Of a DNA stretch of 64,000 nucleotides, positions 12,990-60,671 are shown one piece after another. Each line of letters opens with the position of its first letter. Position 1 is the stretch's first letter. Position numbers and translations under genes: made by a program. Source of the DNA: Alphaproteobacteria bacterium (GTDB taxonomy: Bacteria > Pseudomonadota > Alphaproteobacteria > JACZXZ01); contig DATJLQ010000007.1 in NCBI GenBank assembly GCA_035509415.1, positions 696 to 64,695 on the forward strand. The letters are read 5' to 3'. A model generated the notes under the pieces. It ran no database searches and was not told the DNA's origin. It saw only the letters and a list, made by a program, of their open reading frames with translations.

Positions 12990-13045
12990 GCGGCACCGCC
13001 GGCATTCCCGCAACCGTCTATTCATCGAGCGCACGAGGAAAAACC

Positions 13046-17360: not shown

Positions 17361-18567
17361 TCCGACGCCCCGGAAAGTCTGCGTCGTCACCGGCTCGCGC
17401 GCGGAATACGGCATCCTGCGCCCGCTGCTCGCGGCCCTCAAGGCAGACCCGGGCTTCGAGCTCCGGCTCGTCGTGTGCGCGATGCATCTCTCGGCCACCT
17501 TCGGCCTCACCTATCGCGAGATCGAGGCGGACGGCTTCGCGATCGACCGCCAGGTCGAGATGGCGCCCGACGCGGACACGGCCGCCGGGGTGACGAAGTC
17601 GATCGGCCGCGGCTGCATCGGCTTCGCCGACGCCTTTGCCGAGCTCAAGCCCGATCTCCTGGTTCTTCTGGGCGACCGCTACGAGATTCTGGCCGCGGCG
17701 GCGGCGGCGCTCGTCGCGCGCATTCCGGTCGCGCACATCCACGGCGGCGAGCTCACCGAGGGCGCCATCGACGACGCGATCCGGCACGCGGTCACCAAGA
17801 TGTCCCATCTCCATTTCTGCGCCGCCGAGACCTATCGCCAACGCGTGATCCAGCTCGGCGAGGCGCCCGAGCGCGTATTCACCGTGGGCGCGCTCGGCCT
17901 CGACAATCTCGCTGCCATCCCGCTCATGAGCCGGCACGAGCTCGAGACCGATCTCGATTTCCGCTTCGGCGACCGGATGGTGGTCGTGACTTACCATCCG
18001 GCGACCCTCGAGGCGGGCGATCCCGCGGCCGGGCTCGCCGCACTCCTCAAGGCGCTCGACCGGTTCCCCGAATTGCGCGCGGTGATCACCTATCCCAACG
18101 CGGATGCGGGGGCGAACGCGCTCATCGACGGGATCGAGGCCTACGCCGCGCGGCGCAAGGGCCGCGTCCTCCTGGTGAAGTCGCTCGGCACCCGGCGTTA
18201 TCTGAGCCTCGTGGCCCAGGCCGCCGCAGTTATCGGCAATTCGTCGAGCGGCATCATCGAGGTTCCGTCCTTCCGCGTGCCCACGGTCAATCTCGGCACG
18301 CGCCAACGTGGCCGCCTGCGCGCGGCGTCGATCGTCGATTGCGCCGAGGAGCCGGAGGCGATCCTGCGCGCGATCCAGACCGCACTCTCGTCCGAGTTCC
18401 GCGCAGGGCTCATGGGCATGGCGAATCCCTATGGCGACGGCAAGACCGCGCCGCGCATTCTCGAGCGCCTGCGCGCGGCCGATCTCGAGGCGCTGCCGAT
18501 GAAGCGCTTTTACGATCTGCCGCGCGTGACGGCGGACGCGCGCGAGACGGCGGCGGCGAATCCATGA
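17353..18567 (+). CDS. neuC: UDP/GDP-N-acetylglucosamine 2-epimerase (hydrolysing), NeuC/LegG family.
   Basis: Motifs KVCVVTGSRAEYGILRPLL and HIHGGELTEGAIDDAIRHAVTKMSHLHF are characteristic of NeuC. Confidence 0.85.
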   Translation: MTSPTPRKVCVVTGSRAEYGILRPLLAALKADPGFELRLVVCAMHLSATFGLTYREIEADGFAIDRQVEMAPDADTAAGVTKSIGRGCIGFADAFAELKPDLLVLLGDRYEILAAAAAALVARIPVAHIHGGELTEGAIDDAIRHAVTKMSHLHFCAAETYRQRVIQLGEAPERVFTVGALGLDNLAAIPLMSRHELETDLDFRFGDRMVVVTYHPATLEAGDPAAGLAALLKALDRFPELRAVITYPNADAGANALIDGIEAYAARRKGRVLLVKSLGTRRYLSLVAQAAAVIGNSSSGIIEVPSFRVPTVNLGTRQRGRLRAASIVDCAEEPEAILRAIQTALSSEFRAGLMGMANPYGDGKTAPRILERLRAADLEALPMKRFYDLPRVTADARETAAANP

Positions 18568-19637
18568 CGCGCACGCTCGTCATCGCCGAGGCCGGGGTCA
18601 ATCATAACGGCTCGGCCGAGCTCGCGCTCGAGCTCGTCGACGTCGCGGCGGCGGCGGGCGCCGACGTGGTCAAGTTCCAGACCTTCCGCGCCGACGCGCT
18701 CGTCACGCGCGACGCCCCCAAGGCCGCGTACCAGAAGGAGCGCACTGCCGGCGACGATCAATACGCGATGCTCAAGGCGCTCGAGCTCGACCGCGCGATG
18801 CATGAGCGGCTCGCCGCGCGCTGCACGGAGAAGGGGATCGAGTTTCTCTCGACCGCCTTCGACCTCGAGAGCCTGGACCTCGTGGTCGCGACGGGCGTCA
18901 AGCGCCTCAAGATTCCATCGGGCGAGATCACCAACGGCCCGTTCCTCCTGGCCGCCGCGCGCAAGAAGCTTCCCATGGTGCTTTCGACCGGCATGTCGAC
19001 CCTCGACGAGATCGAGGAAGCGCTCGGCGTCGTCGCCTTCGGCCTCCTCGCGCCGTCGCAATCGAAGCCGACCCGCGCCGCTTTCGCCGAGGCCTTTCGC
19101 GCCCCCGAGGCCGCGGCGGCATTGCGCGCCAAAGTGACGCTGCTTCATTGCACCACGAGCTATCCGGCCGCGCTCGCGGACGTGAATTTGCGCGCCATGG
19201 ACACGATGGCCGAGCGCTTCGGCCTTCCGGTCGGCTATTCCGACCACAGCGAGGGGATCGAAGTGGCGCTCGCGGCGGTGGCGCGCGGGGCCACCACCCT
19301 CGAGAAGCACTTCACGCTCTCGCGCGATTTGCCGGGCCCGGACCACAAAGCCTCCCTCGAGCCCGCCGAGCTCAGGGCGATGATCGCGGGCATCCGGCGC
19401 GTCGAGGCGTGTCTCGGCAGTGCCGCCAAGGCGCCGACCGCGGCCGAGCGTCCGATGCAGGGGATCGCGCGTCATAGCCTCGTCGCCGCGTGCGCGATCG
19501 CGGCGGGCGAGGTGTTCAGCGAAAGGAACCTCGCCTCGAAGCGGCCCGGCACCGGCCTTTCGCCCATGGGCTATTGGGACCTGCTCGGCCGCCGCGCCGC
19601 GCGCGCCTACGCGCCCGACGAGCTGATCGACCAATGA
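18564..19637 (+). CDS. neuB: N-acylneuraminate (nonulosonic acid) synthase NeuB/LegI with C-terminal SAF domain.
   Basis: ATGA overlap. N-terminal LVIAEAGVNHNGS and a complete SAF/antifreeze-like C-terminus. The upstream ORF extension is an artefact. Confidence 0.9.
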   Translation: MTRTLVIAEAGVNHNGSAELALELVDVAAAAGADVVKFQTFRADALVTRDAPKAAYQKERTAGDDQYAMLKALELDRAMHERLAARCTEKGIEFLSTAFDLESLDLVVATGVKRLKIPSGEITNGPFLLAAARKKLPMVLSTGMSTLDEIEEALGVVAFGLLAPSQSKPTRAAFAEAFRAPEAAAALRAKVTLLHCTTSYPAALADVNLRAMDTMAERFGLPVGYSDHSEGIEVALAAVARGATTLEKHFTLSRDLPGPDHKASLEPAELRAMIAGIRRVEACLGSAAKAPTAAERPMQGIARHSLVAACAIAAGEVFSERNLASKRPGTGLSPMGYWDLLGRRAARAYAPDELIDQ

Positions 19638-19648: not shown

Positions 19649-20863
19649 TCAATCGCGCGGCTTTGCGCCGTCGGAATAAACCGCGTCGCCGAGGAGGGCC
19701 CGCGCGGCCGTGAGCGCCGTGGGCTCGCGCGAGGCGCCGGGGCGGGCGAGGAAAGCGCGCGCATAGGCGTCGTAGGCCGCGTCGTCGAGCGTGGCCCAAT
19801 CGCGCGGCAACGCGGGCTCGGCCATGTCGAGCCGCGGCGCGCCGAGCCAGCTTGCGAAGCGCGCGATCGTGACGCCGTAGGGAGTCGCTTCCATCGCGGC
19901 GCCCGCGAGCAGCAGCACCGGCTTCCGGAACGCGACCGCGAAGCCGAGCGAGGTCGAGCAATGGGCGAGCACGAGACGCGCCCCCCGTACGAGCGCCGCC
20001 GTGCGGCCTTGCGCGATCTCGCGCCCGCCGAAGAGCTCGGCGGACCCGTAGCGCGCCTTGGGATGGGCGGCCACGACGACGTTGAGCCCGGTCTCGCGCT
20101 CGATGCGGTCGAAGGCGTTGCGCAGCAGCTCGAAATAGCGCTCCGGTGCGATGGGCGGCGGCGCCGCGCCGATGAGCGCGAAATCGGGATGGGATACGAA
20201 CATCTCATCGAGGAACACGGCATAGGCGCCGTCGGGTGCGGGCTCGGGCCGCGCCATCTCGGCGCGCGCGAGGCCCATGTCGAAGCTCTCGACGTCGACC
20301 ACGCGCGCGCGCGCGGGATGGGGGAAATGGGCCGTAAGCGCGCCGGGCGCATCCCCCGCCTTGAGCCAGATTGCCGGTGCGGCGAGTGCCGCGTAGCCGA
20401 GATCCCGGTCGAAGCGCCGGCACGCGAAACGCTTTGCGAGATGAGCCCAAAGGAGCGCATCCTGCGCGCGCGCGTGGAGATATTCATCCATGCCGCGCGT
20501 CGTCTTCCAGGGGCGGCGATGGAAAGTCGGGAGGGCGCCTTGGGTGAAGACCGCGTAGCGCACGCCCTTTCGCGCGAAGAGCCGGTAGAGCCAGGCGCTC
20601 TCATGATTGAGCGCCACGTCGGCCAGGACCGCGTCATGATCGGTGAGGCGCGCGAGATGGCTTTCGGCCGCCGCGACCGTTTGAGGCCGCACGGTGCTGG
20701 GGAAGAGAGGGGCTGCGGCCCCATCGACCGTGAGGCCGACCGGCCCATGGAGCTCGACGATCTCGACCTCGAGCCCGCGGCGCCGTGCCTCGTCGAGGCC
20801 GAGACGGGCCCAATCCCGCTCGGCGAACACGCCGCCATAGACGAAGACGATCCGGCTTGCCAT
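19649..20863 (-). CDS. Hypothetical protein. Possibly a GT-B-like glycosyl (ulosonic-acid) transferase.
   Basis: About 404 aa from the internal ATG at 20863. The ATG at 20941 would overlap the divergent ABC gene. The C-terminal half has Rossmann-like VVVAAHPKARYG...LVLAHCSTSLGFAVAFRKPVLLL. No confident family. Confidence 0.5.
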   Translation of the reverse strand: MASRIVFVYGGVFAERDWARLGLDEARRRGLEVEIVELHGPVGLTVDGAAAPLFPSTVRPQTVAAAESHLARLTDHDAVLADVALNHESAWLYRLFARKGVRYAVFTQGALPTFHRRPWKTTRGMDEYLHARAQDALLWAHLAKRFACRRFDRDLGYAALAAPAIWLKAGDAPGALTAHFPHPARARVVDVESFDMGLARAEMARPEPAPDGAYAVFLDEMFVSHPDFALIGAAPPPIAPERYFELLRNAFDRIERETGLNVVVAAHPKARYGSAELFGGREIAQGRTAALVRGARLVLAHCSTSLGFAVAFRKPVLLLAGAAMEATPYGVTIARFASWLGAPRLDMAEPALPRDWATLDDAAYDAYARAFLARPGASREPTALTAARALLGDAVYSDGAKPRD

Positions 20864-20940
20864 CGCGCGCGAGCCCCCGAGGACGCATGCCGCGCCCGTC
20901 ATATCGCACTCTCCGTGCGCCGCGCCAGGGGAATTCGGCA

Positions 20941-22779
20941 ATGAGGAACCGGCTCGCCGGCTATGTCGCCTTCGCGCGCCAATGCGCGACGCTGCTCGCC
21001 GACAACAAGGCGATCTTCGCCGTCTTCCTCGTGGTGTCGCTCCTGGGGGCGCTCACCGAGGGCCTCACCATCTCGCTCCTGGTGCCGATCCTCGACAACC
21101 AGGGCGGCCAGGGCTCGTTCGCCGGCGTTCCCTATTTCGGCGCCATCGCCGGCCTGTTCGGCGAGGTTTCGCCGAGCGAGCGCATCGAGATCGCCGCGAT
21201 CGCGATCGCGGTCCTGATCGTGCTCCGGAACCTGCTCCAATTCTCGGTCGACGCGTTGAGTGCCGTGATCCCGCTGCGCCTCCAGGAGAATTTCGCCAAC
21301 CGCGGCTACCGCGCGCTGATGGAGGTCGAGATCGGCTTCATCCACGCGCGCGAATACGGCGTGCTGTTCAACGGCGTGAGCGGCTGGGCCAAGGGTGTCA
21401 CGATGCTGCTCACCAACGTCGCGACCGTGGTGTGGGGAGCGCTCATCGTCGCGATCTACCTGGTCATGATGCTCGCGATCTCGGTGCCGCTCACGTTGCT
21501 CTCGATCGCGTTCATGGGCGGAATGTCGCTGGTGCTGCGCTGGCTGACCTCGGGGCCGCTCCGGCGCGCGGGCAAGCGCTCGAACGACGCGGTCGGCCGG
21601 GTCAACCAGCTGCTCATGGAATCGGTGGGCGGGATGAAGGTGATCCGCCTCGCGAGCGCCGAGACGACCATGATCGGCGCGTTCGGCGCCGCGGTCAGGA
21701 ACTCGCTCGAGGCCGAGCGCGGGGCGGCCAAGATCCAGGCGACCGTCCAGCCCGTGATGACGGCGGGCGCGGGACTGTTCATCTGCGCGCTCCTGCTTGG
21801 GAACGCGGCCTTCAACGCGTCGAACCCGAACGCCTGGGTCGGCTCGATCCTCCTGTTCCTGTTCCTGCTCTACCGCCTGGTGGGACCGATCGGCAACATC
21901 AACGGCGCGCGCGCGCGTATCGTCAAATACATCCATTCCTTCGACATGCTCAACGAATTCTACCGCGAGACCGCGGCGGCGCGGCAGCCCAACGGCACGC
22001 GCGCCTTCGAGGCCTGGCGCCGCGACATCGCGTTCGACCGCGTTTCCTTCGCCTACGCCAAGGCGGACGCGCCCGCGCTCCACGACGTCTCGACGCGCAT
22101 CGAGCGCGGCACGATGGTCGCGATCGTCGGCCCGTCGGGGGCCGGGAAGACAACCTTCATCTCGCTGCTCGCGCGCCTCTACGACCCGCGGGAGGGGAGC
22201 GTGCGCATCGACGGCACCGACCTCCGCGAATTCGACGTGCGCGGCTGGCGCCACCATTTGGCCGTGGTGACCCAGGACACCTTCATCTTCAACGACACCG
22301 CCGCGCGCAACATCGCGTTCGGGCGCGAGAACGCGACCCTCGACGAGATCCGCAACGCGGCCCGGCTCGCGGCCGCGGACGAGTTCATCGCCGGCATGCC
22401 CGAGGGCTACGACACGGTGCTCGGCGATCGCGGCGTGCGCCTTTCGGGCGGTCAGCAGCAGCGCATCGCGATCGCGCGCGCGGTGCTCGCGAACCCGGAC
22501 CTATTGATCCTCGACGAGGCCACGAGCCACCTCGATACCTTCACCGAGCGCGCGATCCAGGACGCGATCGATCGTGTGTCGCGCGAATGCACCGTGGTGG
22601 TGATCGCGCACCGCCTCTCGACCGTGCGCCGCGCCGACAAGGTGATCGTGATGGAGGGCGGACGCATCGTCGAGGAGGGATCGCACAAGGCGCTCATGGC
22701 GCGCCGCGGCCTCTATTGGGAGATGGTCGAGCATCAGCGCTTCGACATGTCGGACGAAGCGAGCGCGGCGTCGGCATGA
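20941..22779 (+). CDS. ABC transporter, fused permease/ATP-binding protein (type I exporter, MsbA-like).
   Basis: Six predicted TM helices, then Walker A (GPSGAGKTT), the ABC signature (LSGGQQQRIAIARA) and Walker B (ILDEATSHLD). Confidence 0.85.
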   Translation: MRNRLAGYVAFARQCATLLADNKAIFAVFLVVSLLGALTEGLTISLLVPILDNQGGQGSFAGVPYFGAIAGLFGEVSPSERIEIAAIAIAVLIVLRNLLQFSVDALSAVIPLRLQENFANRGYRALMEVEIGFIHAREYGVLFNGVSGWAKGVTMLLTNVATVVWGALIVAIYLVMMLAISVPLTLLSIAFMGGMSLVLRWLTSGPLRRAGKRSNDAVGRVNQLLMESVGGMKVIRLASAETTMIGAFGAAVRNSLEAERGAAKIQATVQPVMTAGAGLFICALLLGNAAFNASNPNAWVGSILLFLFLLYRLVGPIGNINGARARIVKYIHSFDMLNEFYRETAAARQPNGTRAFEAWRRDIAFDRVSFAYAKADAPALHDVSTRIERGTMVAIVGPSGAGKTTFISLLARLYDPREGSVRIDGTDLREFDVRGWRHHLAVVTQDTFIFNDTAARNIAFGRENATLDEIRNAARLAAADEFIAGMPEGYDTVLGDRGVRLSGGQQQRIAIARAVLANPDLLILDEATSHLDTFTERAIQDAIDRVSRECTVVVIAHRLSTVRRADKVIVMEGGRIVEEGSHKALMARRGLYWEMVEHQRFDMSDEASAASA

Positions 22780-23771
22780 CCGCATTTCCGAAGCGCGCCG
22801 CCGTCACCACGGCGCCGTTCGGCGCCCTCGACCCCGCGCCCCTCGAGCTCGCGGCGGCGGCGGGTGTCGCGCTCACGCTCAATCCCTACGGCCGGCGCCT
22901 CCAGGCGCACGAGGTCGCGGGCTTCCTCAAGGATCATCCGGTCGTGATCGCGGGCACCGAGCCGCTCAACGAAGCGGTGATGGACGCGTGCCCGGGGCTC
23001 AAGGCGATCTGCCGGGTCGGGGTCGGCCTCGACAGCGTGGATTTGAGTGCCGCGCGGCGGCGCGGCATCGCCGTCTCCTACACGCCCGACGCGCCCTCGA
23101 CCGCGGTCGCCGAGCTCGCGGTCGGCCTCATTCTCGATCTCTTGCGCGGCGTGGCGCCCGCGGACCGCGCGCTGCGCCAGGGCGAATGGACGCGCACGAC
23201 CGGCGCGCGCATCGCCCGCTCGACCGTGGGCGTGCTCGGCGTGGGACGCATCGGGCGGCGCGTCATCCACCATCTCCTCGGCGGATTCCCGGGCGTGCGC
23301 GTTCTCGCGCACGATCTCAATCCCGACCTGTCCCTCGACGGCGTCGAATGGGTCGACAAGGAGACGATCTATCGCACGGCGGACGTCGTCACCGTGCATC
23401 TGCCGCTCACCGCCGCGACCAAGGACCTGATCGGCGCGCGCGAGCTCGCCGCGATGCGGCCCTCGGCGGTGCTGGTGAACACGGCGCGTGGCGGCATCGT
23501 GAACGAGCGGGACCTTGCCGCGGCGCTTGCCCAAGGCGTCATCCAGGCCGCGGCGATTGACGTTTTCGAGCACGAGCCCTACAAGGGCCCGCTCGCTCAG
23601 TCGCCGCGTACGCTCCTGACCTGCCACATGGGCTCGATGACCGCCGATTGCCGCGCCCAGATGGAGACGGAGGCGATGCGCGAGGCGATCCGCTTTCTCG
23701 CGGGCGAGCCCTTCGCGTCGCCGGTACCGGACGAGGAATATGCCATTGCCGAGCAGCTTCACCGGGCTTGA
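22776..23771 (+). CDS. D-isomer-specific 2-hydroxyacid dehydrogenase (phosphoglycerate dehydrogenase-like).
   Basis: ATGA overlap. NAD-binding motif VGVLGVGRIGRRV and catalytic R/E/H motifs. The long ORF 20982-23771 is a frame fusion artefact. Confidence 0.8.
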   Translation: MTAFPKRAAVTTAPFGALDPAPLELAAAAGVALTLNPYGRRLQAHEVAGFLKDHPVVIAGTEPLNEAVMDACPGLKAICRVGVGLDSVDLSAARRRGIAVSYTPDAPSTAVAELAVGLILDLLRGVAPADRALRQGEWTRTTGARIARSTVGVLGVGRIGRRVIHHLLGGFPGVRVLAHDLNPDLSLDGVEWVDKETIYRTADVVTVHLPLTAATKDLIGARELAAMRPSAVLVNTARGGIVNERDLAAALAQGVIQAAAIDVFEHEPYKGPLAQSPRTLLTCHMGSMTADCRAQMETEAMREAIRFLAGEPFASPVPDEEYAIAEQLHRA

Positions 23772-24447
23772 GCGCGGCCTCGAGGCCGCGATCCTCGATT
23801 TCGACGGCGTCGTCGTCGAATCGACCGGGATCAAGACCGAAGCGTTCCGCGCGCTGTTCGCCGATTTCCCCGCGCGCGTCGACGCGATCGCGGCCCTCCA
23901 CCAGCGCCATGCGGGCGTCGACCGCTACGCCAAGTTCGACATGATTTATCGCGACATTCTCGGCCTGCCGCTTTCGGCCGAGACGCGGCGCGCGTTGGGC
24001 GAACGCTTCGCGCGTTTGGTCGAGGAGCGGGTCGTCGCCTGCCCGATGGTCGTCGGGGCCGGCGAGCTGCTGGCTTCCCTCGAGGGGCGCGTGCCGGTCG
24101 CAATCGCCTCGGCGACGCCCCAGGCCGAGATCGAGCGCATCGTCGCCAAACGCGGGCTCGGGCGATTCTTCGCCGCGGTACGCGGAAGCCCGCCGGACAA
24201 GACGGGCATCGTGCGGGCACTCCTGGCCGAGCGGGGCTGGAACCCATCGGCGACGCTCATGATCGGGGACGCGATCGCGGATTTCGAGGCGGCGCGCGCG
24301 AGCGGCCTCGCCTTCATCGGCCGCGCCGTGCCGGGCGAGCGCCATCCGTTCCCGGACGGCGTCGCGGTGGTCGACGATCTGACCGGCCTCGCCGCGACCC
24401 TTCTGGGCGATGCGCGCGGCACCATGCGCGCGAGGGCGATTTCATGA
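23740..24447 (+). CDS. HAD-superfamily hydrolase (phosphatase or beta-phosphoglucomutase-like).
   Basis: Motif I ILDFDGVVVEST plus later HAD motifs. The predicted start overlaps the upstream gene by 32 nt, so the true start may be downstream. Confidence 0.65.
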   Translation: MPLPSSFTGLERGLEAAILDFDGVVVESTGIKTEAFRALFADFPARVDAIAALHQRHAGVDRYAKFDMIYRDILGLPLSAETRRALGERFARLVEERVVACPMVVGAGELLASLEGRVPVAIASATPQAEIERIVAKRGLGRFFAAVRGSPPDKTGIVRALLAERGWNPSATLMIGDAIADFEAARASGLAFIGRAVPGERHPFPDGVAVVDDLTGLAATLLGDARGTMRARAIS

Positions 24448-25322
24448 GAATTCTCGTGACCGGCGGCAGCGGCTTCCTCGGCAGCCACGTCGCGGACGCG
24501 CTCACCGAGGCGGGCCACGAGACGATCGTGTTCGACCGCGCGCCGTCTCGCTGGATCGGGCCCAAGCAGCGCATGATCGTGGGCGACGTGCTCGATGCCG
24601 GCGCCGTCGCGACGGCGATGGAGGGATGCGGCGCCGTCTACCATCTCGCGGCCCTTGCCGACATCGACGCCGCGCTCGAGCGCCCGCGCGAGACCGTCGA
24701 GGTCAACATCATGGGCACGGTGAATTTGCTCGAGGCGGCGCGCGCGGCCAAGATCGGGCGCTTCGTGTTCTCGAGCTCGATCTACGTCTATTCGCGTCAG
24801 GGCTCGTTCTACCGCACCACCAAGCAGGCGTGCGAGCATTTGATCGAGGACTACCGCGAGCGCTTCGGCCTCGCCTACACGATCCTGCGTTACGGCTCGC
24901 TCTACGGACCGCGCGCCGACCGCAGCAACTATCTCCATAGCCTGCTCGCCCAGGCGCTCGAGGCGCGGCGCATGGACCATTACGGCACCGGCGACGAAGT
25001 GCGCGAGTACATCCACGTGCGCGACGCGGCCGCCATGAGCGTCGACGTGCTCGCGCCCGAGTTCGCCGACCAGATCATCCATCTCGCGGGCCGCGAGCGC
25101 ATGACCAGCCGCGACATGCTCGCCATGATCCGCGAGATGCTGGGCGGCGACGTGACGGTCAATTTCGAGAATGCCCTCTCGCCCGGCCATTACGTCCAGA
25201 CGCCGTACAACTACACGCCGCGGCTCGGCCGGCGCCTGACGCGCGACACCTACATCGACCTCGGCCTCGGGCTCCTCGATTGCCTGCAGCAGATCGACGC
25301 CGAGCGCACGCAAGAACGCTAG
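24444..25322 (+). CDS. NAD-dependent epimerase/dehydratase (SDR).
   Basis: ILVTGGSGFLGSHV motif and YxxxK (YRTTKQA). Confidence 0.8.
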   Translation: MRILVTGGSGFLGSHVADALTEAGHETIVFDRAPSRWIGPKQRMIVGDVLDAGAVATAMEGCGAVYHLAALADIDAALERPRETVEVNIMGTVNLLEAARAAKIGRFVFSSSIYVYSRQGSFYRTTKQACEHLIEDYRERFGLAYTILRYGSLYGPRADRSNYLHSLLAQALEARRMDHYGTGDEVREYIHVRDAAAMSVDVLAPEFADQIIHLAGRERMTSRDMLAMIREMLGGDVTVNFENALSPGHYVQTPYNYTPRLGRRLTRDTYIDLGLGLLDCLQQIDAERTQER

Positions 25323-25332
25323 GGAGCGAAGC

Positions 25333-26079
25333 ATGATCGTCGCCATCCTCATCGGCCGCGAAGGCTCGTCCGGCTATCCGGGGAAGAACGTGCTTCCGGT
25401 CCTGGGGAAGCCGCTGGTCGCCTGGCCGCTCGAGGCCGCGAAGTCGGTCGCCGAGATCGGACGCATCTACGTCTCGACCGATAGCCCGTCGATCAAGGCG
25501 ATCGCGCGCGAATACGGCGCACGCATCATCGAGCGGCCGGCCCATCTCGCGACCAAGGCGGCGCTCGGCGAGCACGCCTACGAGCATGCGCACCAGGTGA
25601 TCGCGGCCGAGCTCGCGCGCGAGGGGCAGACGGCCGAGCTCTACGTGCTGCTGATGGCGAACGCGCCGACCGTCTCGGCGGCGCAACTGCGCGAAGGCAT
25701 CGCGGTGCTGCGCGCCCATCCAGAGTACGATTCCGCGGTGACCGTGTCCTGCTACAACATGTGGAGCCCGTTGCGCGCGCGCAAGATCGGTGCCGACGGG
25801 CTCCTGCATCCCTTCGTGCCGTTCGAGACGTTCGGCGATCCGAAGACGCTCAATTGCGACCGCGACAGCCAGGGCGATTCCTGGTTCGCCGACATGGGCG
25901 TGTCGATCGTGCGGCCGAAGAATCTCGACCGGCTCGAGGACGGGCTTCTGCCGCAGAAATGGATGGGCCAGAAAATCTACCCGATCAGGAACGAAGGCGG
26001 GCTCGACGTCGATTATCCGTACCAGATGCCGCAAGCCGAGTTCTGGCTCAAGGCCCAGGGCGGCACCAAGGGGAAATGA
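25333..26079 (+). CDS. Acylneuraminate cytidylyltransferase-family protein (second CMP-sugar-acid synthetase paralogue).
   Basis: N-terminal AILIGREGSSGYPGKN matches the family motif. Confidence 0.8.
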   Translation: MIVAILIGREGSSGYPGKNVLPVLGKPLVAWPLEAAKSVAEIGRIYVSTDSPSIKAIAREYGARIIERPAHLATKAALGEHAYEHAHQVIAAELAREGQTAELYVLLMANAPTVSAAQLREGIAVLRAHPEYDSAVTVSCYNMWSPLRARKIGADGLLHPFVPFETFGDPKTLNCDRDSQGDSWFADMGVSIVRPKNLDRLEDGLLPQKWMGQKIYPIRNEGGLDVDYPYQMPQAEFWLKAQGGTKGK

Positions 26080-27221
26080 CCGTGCCCAAGCGCGAGGACG
26101 GCGGCGCTCCAAGGATGGGCGCGGCCCCGCGGCCCCGGGACCATCTCGCCGGCTTGAGCCGCGACAGCGATTGTCTCGGCGAGCGCACGCGCTTCGTGTG
26201 CCTCGACCGGAACGAGCGGCCGAGCGCGTGGCCGGAGGCGGATTTCCGCGCGGCCCTCGCGACCCTCAAGCCGACCGACTTCAATCATTATCCCGATCTC
26301 GGCCCGCTCTATGAGCGGCTGGTGCGCGCGACCGGCTTGCCCCAGGCGCGGCTTGCGGTGGGTGCCGGCTCGGACGCCCTCATCCGGCGCGCGCTTCACG
26401 CCTATCTCAGGCCAGGCGACAAGCTGCTCTCGCCCGATCCGAGCTACGGCATGTACGCGGTGTGGGCGCGTATCTTCGAGGCGGAGCATGTCGCGGTCCC
26501 CTACGGCGCCGATCTGCGTCTCGACCTCGACGGCTTCATCGCGCGCATCGAGACGGCGCGGCCGCGCGTGGTCGCGATCGCCAACGCCGACCAACCGACC
26601 GGCGCCATGCTCGCGCGCGACTCCCTGCTCGCCATCGTCGATGCCTGCGCGCGCATGGGCGCGTTGTGCCTCGTCGACGAGGCCTATCACCCGTTCTCGC
26701 CCGTGACCCTGCTCGGCGACGTGCGCGACCGTCCGTCGCTCCTGGTGCTGCGTAGCTTCTCCAAGAGCGGCGGCATCGCGGGCCTGCGCGTCGGCTTCGC
26801 CGCGGGCGACGCGGAGGCGATCCGCGCCCTCCACGCCGTGCGCAGCCCGGGCGAGGTCGCCTCGCTCTCGGCCGCGATCGCCTGCTACCTGCTCGACCGG
26901 CCGGAGATTTTCGAGCGCCATCGCGCCGAGGTCGAGGAGGGGCGCGCGCGCCTCCTCGCGGCGGCGGCGTCGCTCGGCTTCGAATGCCCGCCCTGCCACG
27001 GCAATTTCCAGCTCGTGCGCACGGCGCCGCTCGCGCCCAAGGCGCTCGCCGCAGCCCTCGAGCGGCGCGGCTACCTCGTCCGCGCCGGCTTCGGCTTCGC
27101 GCCCCTCAAGGACGCGATCCGCGTGACGCTCGACGGCCCGGCGGTGATCGATCCCTTCGTCGCGGCGCTCGAGGAAAGCTGCGCCGAGCTGCGCGCGGCC
27201 GCGGCACCCGCCGGCACCTGA
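26076..27221 (+). CDS. HisC-like class I/II PLP-dependent aminotransferase (CobD-type decarboxylase not excluded).
   Basis: ATGA overlap. PLP-lysine region SFSKSGGIAGLRVGF is typical of histidinol-phosphate aminotransferase and CobD homologues. Confidence 0.75.
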   Translation: MTVPKREDGGAPRMGAAPRPRDHLAGLSRDSDCLGERTRFVCLDRNERPSAWPEADFRAALATLKPTDFNHYPDLGPLYERLVRATGLPQARLAVGAGSDALIRRALHAYLRPGDKLLSPDPSYGMYAVWARIFEAEHVAVPYGADLRLDLDGFIARIETARPRVVAIANADQPTGAMLARDSLLAIVDACARMGALCLVDEAYHPFSPVTLLGDVRDRPSLLVLRSFSKSGGIAGLRVGFAAGDAEAIRALHAVRSPGEVASLSAAIACYLLDRPEIFERHRAEVEEGRARLLAAAASLGFECPPCHGNFQLVRTAPLAPKALAAALERRGYLVRAGFGFAPLKDAIRVTLDGPAVIDPFVAALEESCAELRAAAAPAGT

Positions 27222-27266
27222 GCGCGCCCAGATCGTTCGCCCGGATTCCCCGACCGAGGAGCCACT

Positions 27267-28358
27267 ATGACCGTGAAGATCGCCCTCATCGGCTGCGGCC
27301 GCGTCGCCGGCCATCATCTGCGCTCGGTCGCCTCGATCGAGGGCGCCCAGGTGGTCGCGGTGTGCGACCTCGTGGCCGACAAGGCGCGCGCATACGGCGA
27401 GAAGTTCAACGTCGCCTGGTTCACCGACTACCACGCCATGCTGCGCGCGCTGCCGGAGATCGACGTGGTCTCGATCATCACGCCGTCGGGCATGCATGCC
27501 GAGCACGGCATCGACGTGATGCGCCGCTACAAGAAGCACATCCTGGTCGAGAAGCCGACCTTCATGCACCCGGCGCAGCTCAACGAGGCCTACGACCTCG
27601 CCGAGGCGTCGGGCTTGCGCATCTTTCCAGTGTTCCAGAACCGCTACAATCGCGCCGTGGCGCGGGTCAAGGCAGCACTCGCGCGCGGCGAGCTCGGCGA
27701 GATCCGCATCATGGCGGTGCGCGTGCGCTGGTGCCGGCCCCAGCGCTATTACGAGCTCGCACCCTGGCGCGGCACCTTCTCCCACGATGGCGGCTGCCTC
27801 GGCAATCAGGGCATCCACCATATCGATCTGCTGCGCTATCTCGGCGGCGAGGTCGACCGGCTCAATGCCACGCTACGCACCCTTGGCGCCACGATCGAGG
27901 TCGAGGACACGGCGATCGCCACGCTCACCTACCGCAGCGGGGCCGTGGGCGTGGTCGAGGTCACGACGGCGGCGCGACCGGACGATTTCGAGGCGTCGCT
28001 CTCGATCGTGGGCTCGAAGGGGCTCGCCGAGCTCGGCGGCTGGGCGGTCAACGAGCTCCGGACCTTCACGCCCGATCCGGCCGTTTGCGCCGAGGCGAGC
28101 GAGAAGTTTCCCGACGTCTACGGCTTCGGCCATTTCGAGGTCTATCGCAACCTGGTGGCCGACCTCGCCGGGCGCCGGTCCTTTCCGGTCGACCGGCGCG
28201 ACTGTCTCAGCTCGATCAACCTGCTCCACGCCTTCTATCGCTCCGACGAGGAGGGCGGCTGGATCGACGTCGCGGCGGGCCGCGCGTCCGACCGGCTGGG
28301 CCGGCCGAACGAGGCGCTCTCCAACCTCTACCGCACGCCGGCGCCGAGCGCGCCCTGA
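27267..28358 (+). CDS. Gfo/Idh/MocA-family oxidoreductase.
   Basis: N-terminal KIALIGCGRVAGHHL Rossmann fold and EKP motif (ILVEKPTF). Confidence 0.8.
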   Translation: MTVKIALIGCGRVAGHHLRSVASIEGAQVVAVCDLVADKARAYGEKFNVAWFTDYHAMLRALPEIDVVSIITPSGMHAEHGIDVMRRYKKHILVEKPTFMHPAQLNEAYDLAEASGLRIFPVFQNRYNRAVARVKAALARGELGEIRIMAVRVRWCRPQRYYELAPWRGTFSHDGGCLGNQGIHHIDLLRYLGGEVDRLNATLRTLGATIEVEDTAIATLTYRSGAVGVVEVTTAARPDDFEASLSIVGSKGLAELGGWAVNELRTFTPDPAVCAEASEKFPDVYGFGHFEVYRNLVADLAGRRSFPVDRRDCLSSINLLHAFYRSDEEGGWIDVAAGRASDRLGRPNEALSNLYRTPAPSAP

Positions 28359-28361
28359 AAG

Positions 28362-29147
28362 TTGCCGCTCGTGACCGCGAAGAACATCGTCTACCGGACC
28401 GACGGGATCGCGCGCTATTTCGAGCGCCATCGCCGCCATTGGGACGAGTTCTATCCCTCCGAGCGCTGGGTGTTCGAGGCGATCGCGCGCGAGCGGTCGA
28501 GCCTCGGCGCGGTGCTCGACGTCGGCTGCGCGTTGGGCGGCCTGGGCACGGCCTTGGCCGAGCGCTTCCCGCTCGAGCGCTATGTCGGCGTCGACATCAA
28601 CCGCCAGGCGATCGAGGCGGCGCAGGCGCGTCCCGCCGCGATCCCGAGCGAGTTCATCGCGGGCGATATTTGCGATTGCGCGCCGCTTGCGGGCCGCGTC
28701 TTCGATCTCGTCGCGGCGCTGAGCGTGGTCGATTGGAATCTCGACGGCACCGGCATCCTCAAGGCGTGCTGGGAGCGCGTGGCGCCGGGCGGCCATCTCG
28801 TGCTTTCGCTCCGGCTCACCCCGGGCGCGGGCGTGCGCGATCCCGCGCGAAGCTTCCAGTACATCTGGCACGGCGCCGAGCCGCCGCCCGCGGACGCGGA
28901 GCGCGCACCCTATGTGGTGCTCAATGGGGTCGACGCGCTGCGGCTTCTCGCGAGCCAAGTGCCCGCACCCGCGCGCATTCTCGGCTACGGCTATTGGGGC
29001 CGTCCGTCCGCGACCGCGCGCACGCTTTACGAGCGGCTCGTCTTCGCGGTGTTCGCGCTCCGCAAGGCCGCGGCGGGCGAGACGCCGGACGAGCCGGCGC
29101 TCGAGCTTCATTTGCCATCGTCGGTGCTGCTTCCGGCGGCGCGATGA
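28362..29147 (+). CDS. Class I SAM-dependent methyltransferase.
   Basis: Motif I VLDVGCALGGLG. Non-ATG (TTG) start assumed. 261 aa. Confidence 0.65.
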   Translation: MPLVTAKNIVYRTDGIARYFERHRRHWDEFYPSERWVFEAIARERSSLGAVLDVGCALGGLGTALAERFPLERYVGVDINRQAIEAAQARPAAIPSEFIAGDICDCAPLAGRVFDLVAALSVVDWNLDGTGILKACWERVAPGGHLVLSLRLTPGAGVRDPARSFQYIWHGAEPPPADAERAPYVVLNGVDALRLLASQVPAPARILGYGYWGRPSATARTLYERLVFAVFALRKAAAGETPDEPALELHLPSSVLLPAAR

Positions 29148-31024
29148 CGGGCGCGGCCGAGATCGTCATGCTGCCCGCGGACGAGGCGAGCCCGGATGCG
29201 CTCGAAGCGTGTGCCGCGCGCGGCGCCTTCGCGGTGCTTTATCTGGGATCGTCCTTCGCGGCCCTGGCCGCGCTCGAGCGCGCGCTCCCCGCGGGCTGGA
29301 CGCTGGTGCCGGTGGGCGACGGGCTGCGGCGTGCGGCGGAGTCGCTACGCCGGGAATTCCTCGATCTCGACGCCGCGGTGCTGCGCCCGGGTGTCGCGCG
29401 CGATTGGTGGGACGCGACCCATCTCGGCGAGCGCAATCCCTTGTCCTCGACCCTCGGGCTCGATCTCGCGCGTTTCTTTTTTCTGCTCGAGACGCTGCGG
29501 CGCCACGAGCGATTGCTCGTGCTGTGCGACGATCGCGCGCGTTGCCGCCTCTACGACGCCGAGATGCGCCGCCGCGGCCATCGCGTCGGCTGGGGCGGGC
29601 CGGGACGCGCGCGGCCATTGGGCGAGGGGGTGCGCGCCATCGGCTACGTCTTGCGTTGCCTTGCGCGCGGCGTCCGGGTCCGGCTTCGCGGCTGCGCCGA
29701 CTATCGCCGGCGCCGCCGCCTGTTGCGCTCGCTTCGACTTGCGCGGCCGCTCGACCTCGAAGGTTTACGGCGCGCCCGGGTGCTGCTGGTCTCGTGGCTA
29801 CGCGCCGAGACCTTTCCGCCGGGTGCGGCCTTGCCCGACGACGCCTATCTCCCGGGCTTCGCGGCGACCGCGACGGCCGCGGGCGAGGGCGTCGCCTATC
29901 TCATGCGCGCGGCTCCCGGGCTCGAGGATTACGCGGCCGCGGCGCAGGGTGCCCTCGCCTCGAGGGTTCCAGTGCTGATGTTCGAGGAGCTGGCGCCCGC
30001 GGGCGCGATGCTCGCGGCGGCGTTCATTTCCATGGCGCTGCCGTGGCGCGTGCCGCGCGCGACGCTCGCGGGCGAGGACGTGGGCGCCATCCTACGTCTC
30101 GGCGCCTGGCGCGAGCTCGGCAGCTTCGACGTCGTGACCGCCTTCGGCCACAAGGCCCTGTGCCAGACGCTCGCGCGGCTCGGCGCCGCACCCGCCTCGC
30201 TCGCCCATCCCTACGAGCATCAGCCCTGGGAAAAGATGCTGCGCCGAGGATTGCGCCGCTGGCTGCCCGATGCGCGCGTGATCGGGGTGCAGCACGTCCC
30301 GTTCGCCCGGACCTATCTGAGCCTGTTTCCGAGCCGGCGCGAGATCGAAAGCGGCCTCATTCCGGACCGGCTTTTGGTCGCGGGCGAGGGATACGCGGAC
30401 TGGTTCCGCGCCGTGGGTTTCCCTCCCGGGCGCCTCGCGGTTCTGGGCGCCGTGCGTTATGCCAAGCCGTCGCGCGCGGCCGAAACGGGAGGCCGTGGTA
30501 TCCTGTGTTGCACGAGCATCGATCTCGCGGAATCGATCGAGCTCGTCGCCAAGGCAGCGCTCGCGAGCCGCGGGCTCGGCCGCACCGTCACGGTCAATTA
30601 TCACCCCGCGACGGGCGAGGATTTCCGCCGCGCGTTGCGCGAGGGGGCGGCGCGCATCGCAGGCGGCGACCTCGACCATCTCGGCTACGTCGACGCACCG
30701 GCCGCGACGCTCCTCGACGACGCGCACCTGGTCCTTTATTGCACCTCGGCCGCGGTCTTCGACGCGCTGCTTGCGGGCAAGCCTGCGGTCTTCGTCGGGC
30801 GCGAGACCGATCTCGACTACGACAAGGCGCCCGACGGATTGACGACGCGGTGCCGCACGGTCGGGGAATTGCGCGCGATCCTGGCCGCTTCCTTTGCCGA
30901 GCCCGCCGGCGACGCGGCGCGCGCGCCGCGTACGGCCGAGCTCGAGCGCTGGATCGCGCCGGTCAAGGAGTCGATCCTGCGCGCGGCCCTGTCGCTCGCG
31001 CCGCGCGAAGCCGTTCCGGCGTGA
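29144..31024 (+). CDS. Large hypothetical protein (626 aa). A candidate glycosyltransferase, possibly of the KpsC/KpsS capsule-synthesis type.
   Basis: ATGA overlap with the upstream stop. Two-lobed Rossmann-like organisation. No confident motif match. The long ORF 26984-31024 is a frame artefact. Confidence 0.5.
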   Translation: MTGAAEIVMLPADEASPDALEACAARGAFAVLYLGSSFAALAALERALPAGWTLVPVGDGLRRAAESLRREFLDLDAAVLRPGVARDWWDATHLGERNPLSSTLGLDLARFFFLLETLRRHERLLVLCDDRARCRLYDAEMRRRGHRVGWGGPGRARPLGEGVRAIGYVLRCLARGVRVRLRGCADYRRRRRLLRSLRLARPLDLEGLRRARVLLVSWLRAETFPPGAALPDDAYLPGFAATATAAGEGVAYLMRAAPGLEDYAAAAQGALASRVPVLMFEELAPAGAMLAAAFISMALPWRVPRATLAGEDVGAILRLGAWRELGSFDVVTAFGHKALCQTLARLGAAPASLAHPYEHQPWEKMLRRGLRRWLPDARVIGVQHVPFARTYLSLFPSRREIESGLIPDRLLVAGEGYADWFRAVGFPPGRLAVLGAVRYAKPSRAAETGGRGILCCTSIDLAESIELVAKAALASRGLGRTVTVNYHPATGEDFRRALREGAARIAGGDLDHLGYVDAPAATLLDDAHLVLYCTSAAVFDALLAGKPAVFVGRETDLDYDKAPDGLTTRCRTVGELRAILAASFAEPAGDAARAPRTAELERWIAPVKESILRAALSLAPREAVPA

Positions 31025-31097
31025 CGCGCGCCCCGAAATCCGAAGAATTCCAGCGATCATTGCGCGCCCGAGCGCGCGCCCCCAGAGGAGAACGACC

Positions 31098-31973
31098 ATG
31101 ACCGCCCAGCCCGTCCGCATCGGCAAGAAGTCCGTCGGTCCCGGCCAGCCCTGCTACATCGTGGGCGAGATCGGCATCAACCACAATGGCGACCTCGCGA
31201 TCGCGAAGAAGCTCATCGACCGAGCGGTCGAATTCGGCTTCGACGCGGTCAAGTTCCAGAAACGCACGGTCGACGTGGTCTACACGCCCGAGGATCTGGC
31301 GCGCGAGCGCGAATCGCCGTTCGGCAGCACCAATGGCGACCTGAAACGCGGCCTCGAGTTCGGCGCGGCGCAATACAAGGAAATCGATGCGTATTGCCGC
31401 GCGCACGGCATCGATTGGTTCTGCTCGCCCTGGGACGAGGGCAGCGTCGACTTTCTCGAGCGCTTCGACCCCGTATGCTACAAGATCGCGTCGGCCTGCC
31501 TGACCGACGACGGGCTCCTCAAGCACATCAAGGCCACGAAGCGTCCGATCGTCCTCTCGACCGGCATGAGCACGCTCGACCAGATCGACCGCGCGGTCGC
31601 GATCCTCGAGGGCACGCCGCTCATCCTTCTCCACACCAACTCGACCTATCCCTCGAAGCACGAGGAGCTCAACCTCTCGGTGATTGCGAGCTTGCGCGCG
31701 CGTTACGGGAAGCCGGTCGGCTACAGCGGCCACGAGCCGGACGTGATCCCATCGGTCATGGCGGCGTCTGCCTACGACGCCTGCATGGTCGAGCGCCACA
31801 TCACCCTCGACCGCGCGATGTGGGGCACCGATCAGGCGGCGAGCCTCGAGCCGCGTGGCATGGAGCTGATGGCGAAATACATCCGCACTTGGGAAGTGGT
31901 GCGCGGCGACGGCAAGAAGCGCGTTTACGACAGCGAGATCCCGATCCTCAAGAAGCTGCGCCGGGTCGGCTGA
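31098..31973 (+). CDS. NeuB-family sugar-acid synthase lacking a C-terminal SAF domain (KDN/Neu5Ac-9-phosphate-synthase-like or PseI-like).
   Basis: RBS AGGAG 7 nt upstream. N-terminal CYIVGEIGINHNGDL and the NeuB TIM-barrel core. 291 aa, with no SAF domain. Confidence 0.8.
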   Translation: MTAQPVRIGKKSVGPGQPCYIVGEIGINHNGDLAIAKKLIDRAVEFGFDAVKFQKRTVDVVYTPEDLARERESPFGSTNGDLKRGLEFGAAQYKEIDAYCRAHGIDWFCSPWDEGSVDFLERFDPVCYKIASACLTDDGLLKHIKATKRPIVLSTGMSTLDQIDRAVAILEGTPLILLHTNSTYPSKHEELNLSVIASLRARYGKPVGYSGHEPDVIPSVMAASAYDACMVERHITLDRAMWGTDQAASLEPRGMELMAKYIRTWEVVRGDGKKRVYDSEIPILKKLRRVG

Positions 31974-31990
31974 GGCGCGCACCCATTCCC

Positions 31991-33148
31991 ATGACCGCGA
32001 CGCTCCGCCTTCTGCATTTGGTGAACAGCCACAGCACCAACGTGGGCAATGGGGCGCTCGCCGACGGTGCCGAGCGCGTGCTGGGCGAGGATCTGGCGGC
32101 ACCGGTCTCGTGGTCGCGCGTGCCGTGGGACGATTACACCTTCGGGCTCAAGAAATTCGATCGGGATTTCGTAGGCGCGATCAACCGCTCGGACGGCATG
32201 ATCGTGGGCGGTGCGGTCACGATCAACGGGCGCGCCTATCTCGAGCACGCGGGCATGCGCTTCGACCTTCCGCCAGCGCTTTGGCCGGAGATCCGTAAAC
32301 CATTGATCTTCTACGGGATTTCCTACCGACATTGGGCGGGCCAGCGGTTCCATCACGCGGACAAGCTGCGTTGGGCGTTCGACCACGCGCTCGGGCGCCA
32401 AGACATGCTGCTCGCGTTGCGCAACGACGGCACGCGCGAATGGCTCGAAGGCGCGCTCGGCATCGCGAGCGATCGGCTCCACGTAATCCCCGATCCCGCG
32501 GTGTTCGTCGAAGCCGACGACGCGGCGGCCGCGGCGGACGATCTTGCGCTCGATCCCGGGCGACCCAACATCGTGCTCGCCCTCAACGACGAGGATTCGG
32601 CCGAGCGCTACGGCACACCCGAGCGGCGCATGGAAGTGCTGCGCGGGATTGCCCAGGCGCTCGAGCCCGTGCTCGATGCGCGCGGCGCAAATCTCGTCTT
32701 GGCGCCCCATTATTTCGACGATCATCGCATGATCGCCGACTTCATCGCGTGCTGCCGCCCGCAGCTCGCGCACCAGCGCATGATCTCGACCGGCCTCGCG
32801 CGCATGGCGGACGCGAAGCGCTTCTACGGCCGCTACGCCCGTGCCCAGCTCGTGATCGCGATGCGCGTCCACGCCATGTCGCCCTCGATCGGCCTCGGCG
32901 TGCCGATGATCCCGCTCGTGACCCAGGACCGGCTCGGCCGCTTTCTCGACGATGTCGGCTTGGGCGACCTGGCGATCGACGCGCTCGCACCCGATCTCGC
33001 GGGTCGCCTCCGCGTTGCCATCGAGGCGGCGCTCGACCGGCCCGACGAGCTGCGGCGCCGCTTCCGCGTCACGCGCGACGGCATGCGCGCGCGGCTCGGT
33101 GCCTTCAATCGAAAGGTGGGGGAATTGCTTCATGGCCAAACGCGCTAA
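31991..33148 (+). CDS. Polysaccharide pyruvyl transferase family protein (CsaB/WcaK-like).
   Basis: 385 aa. PS_pyruv_trans-like pattern (LHLVNSHSTNVGNGAL...). Confidence 0.7.
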   Translation: MTATLRLLHLVNSHSTNVGNGALADGAERVLGEDLAAPVSWSRVPWDDYTFGLKKFDRDFVGAINRSDGMIVGGAVTINGRAYLEHAGMRFDLPPALWPEIRKPLIFYGISYRHWAGQRFHHADKLRWAFDHALGRQDMLLALRNDGTREWLEGALGIASDRLHVIPDPAVFVEADDAAAAADDLALDPGRPNIVLALNDEDSAERYGTPERRMEVLRGIAQALEPVLDARGANLVLAPHYFDDHRMIADFIACCRPQLAHQRMISTGLARMADAKRFYGRYARAQLVIAMRVHAMSPSIGLGVPMIPLVTQDRLGRFLDDVGLGDLAIDALAPDLAGRLRVAIEAALDRPDELRRRFRVTRDGMRARLGAFNRKVGELLHGQTR

Positions 33149-33644
33149 GTCCGCCGCGCGTCCGCGTCTCGATCCGGCGCGCGTGGCGCTCATCGTGTTC
33201 GATTTCGACGGCGTGCTCACCGACAACCGCGTGCTTGTGCTCGAGGACGGACGCGAGGCGGTCCTTTGCAGCCGCGCCGACGGGCTCGGCTTCGACGCGT
33301 TGCGCGCGGCGCGCATTCCGACGCTCATTCTCTCGACCGAGCGCAATCCGGTGGTGGCGGCGCGCGCGCGAAAGCTCGGCGTGCCGGTGCTCCAGGCGGT
33401 CGCCGACAAGGCGCAGGCGCTCGAGGCCCATTGCATTGCCGCGGGCATCGCGCTCGCGAGCGTGGTCTATGTCGGGAACGACCTCAACGATCTCAAGGCC
33501 ATGGGGACGGTCGGGCATCCGGTCGCGGTCGCCGACGCCCATGAGCGTGTGCGTAAGGCGGCGCGTTACGTGCTTAAAGCGGCGGGCGGCGAGGGGGCCG
33601 CGCGCGAGCTGGTCGAGCGGCTCATGGGCCTCGCGGTCGGATAG
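33132..33644 (+). CDS. KdsC-family HAD-IIIA phosphatase (3-deoxy-ulosonate-phosphate or acylneuraminate-9-phosphate phosphatase-like).
   Basis: Motif I VFDFDGVLTDN and C-terminal GNDLNDL motif as in KDO-8-P and KDN-9-P phosphatases. Confidence 0.8.
   Translation: MAKRAKSAARPRLDPARVALIVFDFDGVLTDNRVLVLEDGREAVLCSRADGLGFDALRAARIPTLILSTERNPVVAARARKLGVPVLQAVADKAQALEAHCIAAGIALASVVYVGNDLNDLKAMGTVGHPVAVADAHERVRKAARYVLKAAGGEGAARELVERLMGLAVG

Positions 33645-58982: not shown

Positions 58983-60671
<1,689 letters not shown>

Follow-up and report, generated by a model that had tools for sequence, protein, structure and literature searches.

A widespread cytidylyltransferase cassette possibly making and tailoring an activated sialic-acid-like sugar in an alphaproteobacterial surface-glycan operon

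The window analysed here is a stretch of 64,000 nucleotides from contig DATJLQ010000007.1 (positions 696 to 64,695, forward strand) of the genome assembly GCA_035509415.1 of an Alphaproteobacteria bacterium. At 22776-29147 it carries a block of seven genes grouped around a cytidylyltransferase, hereafter CTP2. With a probability of about one half, this block, together with the next gene up to position 31024, represents one version of a cassette, spread by horizontal transfer, that makes and tailors a sialic-acid-like (2-ulosonic) sugar activated with cytidine monophosphate (CMP). The product is best read as a CMP-linked amino-deoxy, methylated ulosonic acid for the cell surface. Sialic-acid-like sugars shape the recognition of microbes by phages, hosts, and immune systems. 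Only a small set of biosynthetic functions is known for them, namely synthases of the NeuB type, activation of the NeuA type, and a handful of epimerisation cassettes. The scheme of activating, oxidising, and re-processing is already known for CMP-linked sugars of this kind; judged from our comparison of loci, what is new here would be the variant employing transamination.

In the proposed mechanism, CTP2 would form the CMP-sugar, and a WlbA-like Gfo/Idh/MocA dehydrogenase (Gfo1) would then convert a single secondary hydroxyl group on the nucleotide-bound sugar into a ketone. A HisC-like pyridoxal phosphate (PLP) enzyme would transaminate this ketone to an amine, while in sister loci a FabG-like reductase would re-reduce it to an epimer, as ElaC does. 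The methyltransferase would methylate the product, and a GT-B protein encoded downstream would move the sugar onto a glycan. The most likely sugar in this window is a nonulosonic acid (NulO) provided by the adjacent legionaminic-acid (Leg) and NeuB genes, so that an amino-deoxy NulO would result. Amination of the ketone is predicted because the PLP enzyme stands in for the reductase of sister loci that resemble Ela-type cassettes. The CMP-sugar donor is suggested by fusions between distant relatives of CTP2 and a sialyltransferase-like domain. The substrate, the order of the steps, and the modified position are inferred here from the gene families, conservation, alternations, and fusions that were observed.

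All seven genes named in the original prediction were confirmed on the + strand. Gene calling was based on third-position GC content, which is 0.86-0.92 for these genes in a window of ~70% GC, and the predicted families agree with Pfam and NCBIfam profiles (Table 1). The gaps between consecutive genes are -32, -4, 10, -4, 45, and 3 nt, which indicates translational coupling. Overlaps of 4 nt were also found between the upstream ABC exporter gene and the gene for the D-2-hydroxyacid dehydrogenase (2HADH), and between the methyltransferase gene and the downstream gene for a 626-aa protein. Coupled at both ends, the block thus lies within a single operon, with a functional unit that reaches at least to 31024. 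This operon extends on the + strand from ~10077 to 37613 (~27 kb) and forms a surface-glycan cluster, with genes for GT4 glycosyltransferases, LptD, and LptF/G at its flanks. Since homologues of five of the seven block genes recur beside CTP2 in other phyla, their grouping is not due to chance. The order of ABC exporter and 2HADH genes is also preserved in other alphaproteobacterial loci (L001, L004, L006, L014, and L027).

CTP2 matches the Pfam family PF02348 with 53.1 bits (gathering cutoff 22.6). Residues R9 and K18 of its P-loop as well as D225 and D227 of a C-terminal DxD metal site are invariant in 16 family members; these roles were assigned by motif analogy with D211/D213 of ElaB (PMC13656337). 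A fold comparison, one of the checks suggested with the original prediction, was made with an AlphaFold (AF2) model of CTP2 (pLDDT 76, with a low-confidence lid region). The first Foldseek matches were 9ftc, 6ifd, 1qwj, and 9t4z, followed by KdsB (E 1e-15 to 1e-10; TM 0.6-0.7). Namely, CMP-pseudaminic acid, CMP-Neu5Ac, and CMP-Kdn synthetases ranked ahead of KdsB.

More than 120 protein clusters share 78-90% identity with CTP2. A genome scan revealed CTP2 in 361 species representatives, the best 80 of which display 62-86% identity. These belong to the Alphaproteobacteria, Acidobacteriota, Chloroflexi, Planctomycetes, Elusimicrobia, Actinomycetota, Nitrospirae, Bacteroidota, and archaea (Methanoregula, Hadarchaeota). 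Identity to the other two cytidylyltransferases of the window is 30-38% over the aligned stretches, and in the case of CTP1 this stretch comprises the first 77 residues only. CTP2 is a distinct and unusually conserved subfamily. A search for annotated close relatives on plasmids returned only matches of <40% identity, all to ordinary PseF/NeuA genes.

Fusion proteins were found at two levels of relatedness. In an exhaustive search, distant relatives of CTP2 (35-41% identity) were found to carry a fused GT29 sialyltransferase-like domain, and members of the CTP2 family are also fused to a methyltransferase or to 2HADH. A genuine CTP2-2HADH fusion with a normal P-loop is present in locus L036 (9995-11830). 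CTP'-2HADH fusions were detected in 8 further loci (e.g. L017, 10687-12522) and in proteins P0199 and P0242. In most of them, the P-loop is altered in a consistent manner (GRAENQPFPGRN, Lys to Arg; Gly-Ser lost), and these fusions always occur alongside a separate CTP2. An apparent CTP2-HisC fusion, P0130, includes only the first ~130 aminotransferase residues and was therefore taken to be a remnant that offers no firm Rosetta-stone evidence.

One of the sialyltransferase-like fusions was encountered in a phage setting. At L084 6267-9279, genes for portal, S78 protease, capsid, and tape measure form a phage structural module, which also carries a CTP_transf_3-GT29 sialyltransferase-like fusion (P0189) beside a SIS_2 isomerase and a methyltransferase. 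A sialic-acid-like sugar may be used by this phage to glycosylate some target.

The genomic context of CTP2, whose survey had also been suggested, was examined by clustering open reading frames from 83 CTP2 loci and annotating the recurrent families. This revealed a conserved cassette with two alternations. Family counts refer to the 46 complete loci, i.e. those with >=7 kb on both sides of CTP2. The most common families were an SDR292-like short-chain dehydrogenase/reductase (SDR; 40 loci), 2HADH (38 loci), and HAD (~28 loci). HisC-like enzymes were encoded in 24 loci and FabG-like short-chain reductases in 22; both were present in 2 loci and neither in another 2. The WlbA-like Gfo dehydrogenase (15 loci) and a radical S-adenosylmethionine (SAM)/SPASM enzyme (22 loci) were never found together (0/46). 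Fisher tests of mutual exclusion gave p ~1e-8 for the HisC-like and FabG-like pair and 3e-6 for the Gfo and radical-SAM/SPASM pair, values that overstate the evidence since the 46 loci are not phylogenetically independent. All four combinations of oxidase and second-slot enzyme occur (10, 9, 5, and 15 loci), and the alternating genes directly flank CTP2, as in the arrangements 'rSAM>CTP>FabG' and 'CTP>HisC>Gfo'. Homologues of the methyltransferase are present in 8 of the complete loci; other methyltransferase families (MT21/FkbM and MT23) occur in related loci. The family and fold of CTP2 and these conserved neighbourhoods bear out the earlier view of an unassigned tailoring or biosynthesis unit centred on a NeuA/KdsB-type cytidylyltransferase.

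In the HisC-like protein, the PLP lysine K230 as well as D201, Y204, and R238, which are fold type I contacts, are conserved in 37 homologues. Its best NCBIfam match is HisC (206 bits, cutoff 276.55), followed by CobD (154 bits, cutoff 290.55), so that both remain below the cutoff. The best PDB matches of Gfo1 are the WlbA UDP-GlcNAcA 3-dehydrogenases 3q2k (203 bits) and 3q2i (198 bits). The partner of the HisC-like enzyme is the Gfo/Idh/MocA dehydrogenase and not 2HADH, which is about equally frequent in loci with the HisC-like gene (21/24) and without it (18/22). The role of a CobD-type decarboxylase, which had been considered earlier, is less likely than ketone transamination because the HisC-like gene alternates with a ketoreductase.

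The 2HADH, SDR, and HAD genes constitute a second conserved sub-module, which is tied to CTP2 and present whichever alternates are used. In related loci, the 2HADH and SDR genes are almost always adjacent, usually with SDR right after 2HADH, and HAD is often next. The nearest match of 2HADH is the type IIIH phosphoglycerate dehydrogenase (PGDH) 1wwk from P. horikoshii (171 bits), but its score with the NCBIfam PGDH model (202.4 bits) is below the equivalog cutoff of 454. The catalytic residues R238/E267/H284 and the NAD-specifying D180 are conserved. In SERA, the Arg of an Arg-Ser motif binds the substrate phosphate directly; this residue is invariant in SERA and present in PDXB too (PMC6303947). 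In 2HADH, G60-T61 aligns with R51-S52 of 1wwk, so that this Arg is absent, and all 47 homologues share A59, G60, and E62. Because the catalytic Arg/Glu/His triad is intact, 2HADH is probably active on a 2-hydroxy or 2-keto acid different from the SERA substrate. The HAD enzyme has a DxD motif (D20, D22) and residues S124, K154, D177, and D181 conserved in 38 homologues. The SDR protein is most similar to PelX, a UDP-GlcNAc 4-epimerase (6wjb, 116 bits); S111/Y123xxxK127 and D31 are conserved, and the TDE dehydratase motif is absent.

The 626-aa protein encoded next to the methyltransferase lacked a Pfam match and matched TIGR04326 ('surface carbohydrate biosynthesis protein') only weakly. Its AF2 model (pLDDT 89) has a confident GT-B fold with generic GT-B matches and no specific family, and no TagF-like match was present among its top fold hits. 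Counterparts of 600-660 aa, including a LIC12162-family transferase (484 bits), hold the same position in other loci.

Among the known systems close to the block is ElaABC from Acinetobacter baumannii KL49 and Vibrio vulnificus. In this compact mobile module, a CTP_transf_3 synthetase acts with a Gfo/Idh/MocA enzyme oxidising the C8 hydroxyl of CMP-Leg5,7Ac2 and a FabG-like reductase to yield the 8-epimer (PMC13656337). Likened by gene family and not by the Ela sequences, our block shares with it a CTP_transf_3 protein, a nearby Gfo/Idh/MocA enzyme, and a ketone-processing enzyme, and the sister loci share the same trio including the FabG-like reductase. Unlike ElaABC, the block has a HisC-like PLP enzyme in the reductase slot and lacks a FabG-like reductase, and many of its relatives have a radical-SAM/SPASM enzyme in the oxidase slot. 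It also differs by the added 2HADH-SDR-HAD trio, the WlbA-like nature of Gfo1, and the distinct CTP2 subfamily. As for a NulO synthase pathway in the same cluster, the window has one, and only 10 of 55 related loci have NeuB within 10 kb (see below).

Two further systems offer partial parallels. EpaA is a prophage-encoded fusion of CTP_transf_3 with an aldo-keto reductase, which works with the short-chain SDR EpaB to convert Pse5Ac7Ac to 8-epi-Pse (PMC12053666). The CTP2-2HADH fusions are analogous to this cytidylyltransferase-oxidoreductase fusion, but the fused partner in EpaA is not 2HADH and the EpaA/EpaB pair includes no aminotransferase. In ManNAc3NAcA synthesis by WlbA/WbpB and WlbC/WbpE, a nucleotide-linked sugar acid is oxidised and then transaminated, as proposed for our block, and Gfo1 is closest to WlbA. 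The block differs in the HisC-like instead of DegT-type partner, in the predicted CMP instead of UDP carrier, and in the absence of WbpA, WbpD, and WbpI equivalents. None of the DegT-type aminotransferase, acetyltransferase, and 2-epimerase companions of WlbA/WbpB was found in the block.

The genes that could supply the sugar backbone were identified upstream of the block. LegC (534 bits, cutoff 420), NeuC (476, cutoff 236), NeuB (460, cutoff 400), and NeuD (208, cutoff 161) all exceeded curated cutoffs, while the putative LegB 4,6-dehydratase was weakly assigned by generic SDR models only. This Leg block also contains a PtmE-like CBS-nucleotidyltransferase and the first cytidylyltransferase. 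The latter lies within 11811-14955 together with a FucO-like Fe-dependent alcohol dehydrogenase (Fe-ADH) and a second DegT aminotransferase. The identity of this Fe-ADH/DegT pair as KdnB/KdnA (Kdo8N) was rejected, as the Fe-ADH is FucO-like (132 bits) and scores only 85 bits with KdnB.

Downstream of the block, the second NeuB gene is followed by genes for a polysaccharide pyruvyl transferase and a KdsC-like HAD phosphatase (30894-33644), which points to a phosphorylated route to a second ulosonic acid. Next to these, the third cytidylyltransferase, a Gfo/Idh/MocA protein, and a short-chain SDR are encoded by coupled genes (33648-36267; gaps -4 and -4). This trio comprises the same gene families as the published ElaB/ElaA/ElaC cassette for 8-epimerisation of CMP-legionaminic acid.

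Several observations weigh against the tailoring mechanism proposed above. CTP2 stays below the curated equivalog cutoffs (72.2 bits with PseF, cutoff 205.7; <=47 bits with KdsB models), and the WlbA-like Gfo1 scores just 77 bits with 3ezy, the entry said to be closest to ElaA. Aminotransferases acting on nucleotide sugars are normally DegT-type and not HisC-type. The relatedness of the loci, noted above, reduces the weight of the two alternations, and three of the seven genes (2HADH, SDR, and HAD) are given no step. The supply of the backbone also raises doubts. There are three CTP_transf_3 genes in the window versus two NeuB genes, and among the 55 loci of >=15 kb, a NeuB homologue was found within 10 kb in only 10. 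In a Methanoregulaceae locus, whose cluster ends at topoisomerase VI genes, no NeuB was in view.

It is possible, although less probable than the NulO-based scheme, that the cassette needs no NeuB and by itself makes an acidic sugar other than a NulO, the third of the cluster. Here, 2HADH would oxidise a phosphorylated aldonic acid of central metabolism (e.g. 6-phosphogluconate) to a 2-keto acid, HAD would dephosphorylate it, and CTP2 would activate it, thereby drawing the unfavourable oxidation forward; SDR, Gfo1, the HisC-like enzyme, and the methyltransferase would then tailor the CMP-sugar. The fusions of CTP2 and CTP' to 2HADH fit such a route, as do the persistence of 2HADH whichever alternates are present, the 45 of 55 loci without a NeuB gene within 10 kb (including the bounded archaeal cluster), and the surplus of CTP_transf_3 over NeuB genes in the window. 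A recurrent aldolase or synthase family able to replace NeuB was not found across the loci. The Gly at the Arg-Ser site would suit a substrate longer than 3-phosphoglycerate, and 2-ketogluconate reductases belong to the same superfamily as 2HADH. However, no report of a CMP-hexulosonate was found in the literature, HAD is missing in ~40% of the loci, and NeuB could be located >10 kb away. Most CTP' domains, with their altered P-loop and a separate CTP2 alongside, may be binding domains and not the next catalytic step. Loci without 2HADH are not enriched for NeuB (1/8 versus ~7/38 with 2HADH), so that the anticorrelation which would favour this route was not seen. An HpcH/HpaI-family pyruvate aldolase was considered as a substitute for NeuB and rejected: it occurs in L087 only (262-1092), divergently adjacent to the CTP2 homologue on a short metagenomic contig, and is absent from all other loci.

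The original prediction had also proposed serine-type logic, i.e. conversion of a 2-hydroxyacid phosphate to a 2-aminoacid phosphate. In a pathway of this kind, resembling those of serine or PdxB, the dehydrogenase, the PLP enzyme, and the phosphatase would act on a small 2-hydroxyacid phosphate and provide a non-sugar substituent (glycerate, serine, serinol, or 2-hydroxyglutarate), possibly activated with CMP or CDP. As in SerA-SerC-SerB and PdxB/CobD, a SERA-like dehydrogenase, a PLP enzyme, and a HAD phosphatase are combined in one operon, and the closest relative of 2HADH is indeed a PGDH. HisC-family enzymes act on phosphate esters, and Campylobacter Cj1435-1437 reportedly combine HisC-like enzymes with a HAD phosphatase. 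In addition, such glycans do carry 2-hydroxyglutaryl, glyceroyl, and glycolyl decorations, and no gene is known for the Tannerella glyceroyl group. We nevertheless consider this explanation unlikely. An invariant Gly takes the place of the phosphate-binding Arg of SERA and PDXB, the PLP enzyme resembles HisC and is not SerC, and 2HADH is equally frequent in loci lacking the PLP enzyme. The latter alternates with a ketoreductase and is co-localised with Gfo or radical-SAM enzymes and CTP2. The block contains no ligase, ATP-grasp protein, or acyltransferase to attach an acid, and the fold relatives of CTP2 all activate 2-ulosonic sugars. Standard serine or cobalamin biosynthesis is also at variance with the PGDH, HisC, and CobD scores below cutoffs and with the setting of the block: in the window and in the 83 related loci, the neighbours are all glycan genes, and no histidine or cobalamin context was encountered.

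O-antigen clusters are mosaics, the GT-B protein has only generic fold matches, and CTP2 is under all equivalog cutoffs, but the block is very unlikely to be a mosaic of unrelated sugar pathways, or CTP2 to make a CDP-linked phospho-substituent of the CDP-glycerol type, given the cross-phylum co-occurrence, the translational coupling, the CTP2-2HADH fusions, the lack of a PEP mutase motif and of a TagF-like top fold match, and the sialyltransferase-like fusions, which favour a CMP-sugar donor. Phosphonate logic, with a cytidylyltransferase, B12-radical-SAM, and Fe-ADH as in fosfomycin biosynthesis, was considered and rejected, since the phosphoenolpyruvate (PEP) mutase motif EDKxxxxxNS was found neither in the window nor in the 83 loci.

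An amino-sugar-acid donor, one of the products originally envisaged, is thus the best current reading, with CTP2 being NeuA/PseF-like by sequence and fold and having distant relatives with a sialyltransferase-like fusion. The occurrence of the cassette from soil Alphaproteobacteria to methanogens, the unusual conservation of its core enzyme, and the two interchangeable enzyme pairs amount to a combinatorial design. If the tailoring mechanism is correct, transamination and radical-SAM oxidation would join the CMP-sugar toolkit, and a genetic explanation would be at hand for amino-NulOs, among them the 8-amino sugar found in Tenacibaculum maritimum. If the NeuB-independent route is correct, the cassette would represent a new family of sialic-acid-like surface sugars spread horizontally across at least 361 species of bacteria and archaea, with Gfo or radical-SAM oxidases and HisC-like or FabG-like ketone processors diversifying a new class of CMP-sugars. 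In either case, identification of the product would give annotation rules for thousands of metagenomic genes now labelled 'cytidylyltransferase' or 'hypothetical'.

The literature provides one lead. An 8-amino-8,9-dideoxy NulO (8-amino-3,5,7,8,9-pentadeoxy-nonulosonic acid) was reported from the O-antigen of T. maritimum, in a paper that does not describe the relevant genes (PMC3210612). A published characterisation of the cassette was not found, nor was anything usable obtained when the literature was searched for hexulosonic-acid glycans, for the LIC12162/TIGR04326 families, or for glyceroyl genes of Tannerella.

Table 1. Genes of the CTP2 block and associated genes in the window
Feature	Position	Strand	Profile matches and remarks
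Fused TMD-NBD ABC exporter (context)	20941-22779	+	ABC_membrane + ABC_tran; alternative start 20785
D-2-hydroxyacid dehydrogenase (2HADH), SERA-like, not canonical PGDH; sub-module B	22776-23771	+	2-Hacid_dh + 2-Hacid_dh_C, Pfam 168+80 bits
HAD-IA phosphatase or mutase; sub-module B	23740-24447	+	HAD_2/Hydrolase matches
Extended SDR, GalE/PelX-like epimerase or oxidoreductase type; sub-module B	24444-25322	+	Epimerase 159 bits
Cytidylyltransferase CTP2, cassette anchor, predicted CMP-ulosonic-acid synthetase	25333-26079	+	CTP_transf_3 (PF02348)
HisC-like class I/II PLP enzyme, predicted keto-sugar aminotransferase; sub-module A	26076-27221	+	Aminotran_1_2 142 bits
Gfo/Idh/MocA dehydrogenase Gfo1, WlbA type, predicted secondary-hydroxyl oxidiser; sub-module A	27267-28358	+	Closest PDB entry WlbA
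Class I SAM methyltransferase (tailoring)	28362-29147	+	Methyltransf_11/25/12 matches
626-aa GT-B-fold protein, candidate transferase for the activated sugar	29144-31024	+	Predicted fold; weak TIGR04326 match
NeuB, first copy	18564-19637		Leg block
NeuB, second copy	30894-31973		Without C-terminal SAF domain; real start probably near 31098

Several other features of the window were recorded. Two proteins of ~430 aa without a Pfam match are encoded at 19649-20941 (- strand, in the middle of the operon) and at 36312-37613; these may be membrane proteins of the polymerase or ligase type. Genes for a PhyH-family Fe/2-oxoglutarate dioxygenase and a methyltransferase (37610-39548, - strand), possibly further tailoring enzymes, end the glycan operon and precede a GT2 gene and lptD. 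No tRNA or Rfam matches were found anywhere in the window. Its GC content drops from ~0.69 to 0.56 over 60000-64000. A look-alike of IS1595-family transposases, judged from its translation alone, is encoded at 61912-62937 on the - strand.

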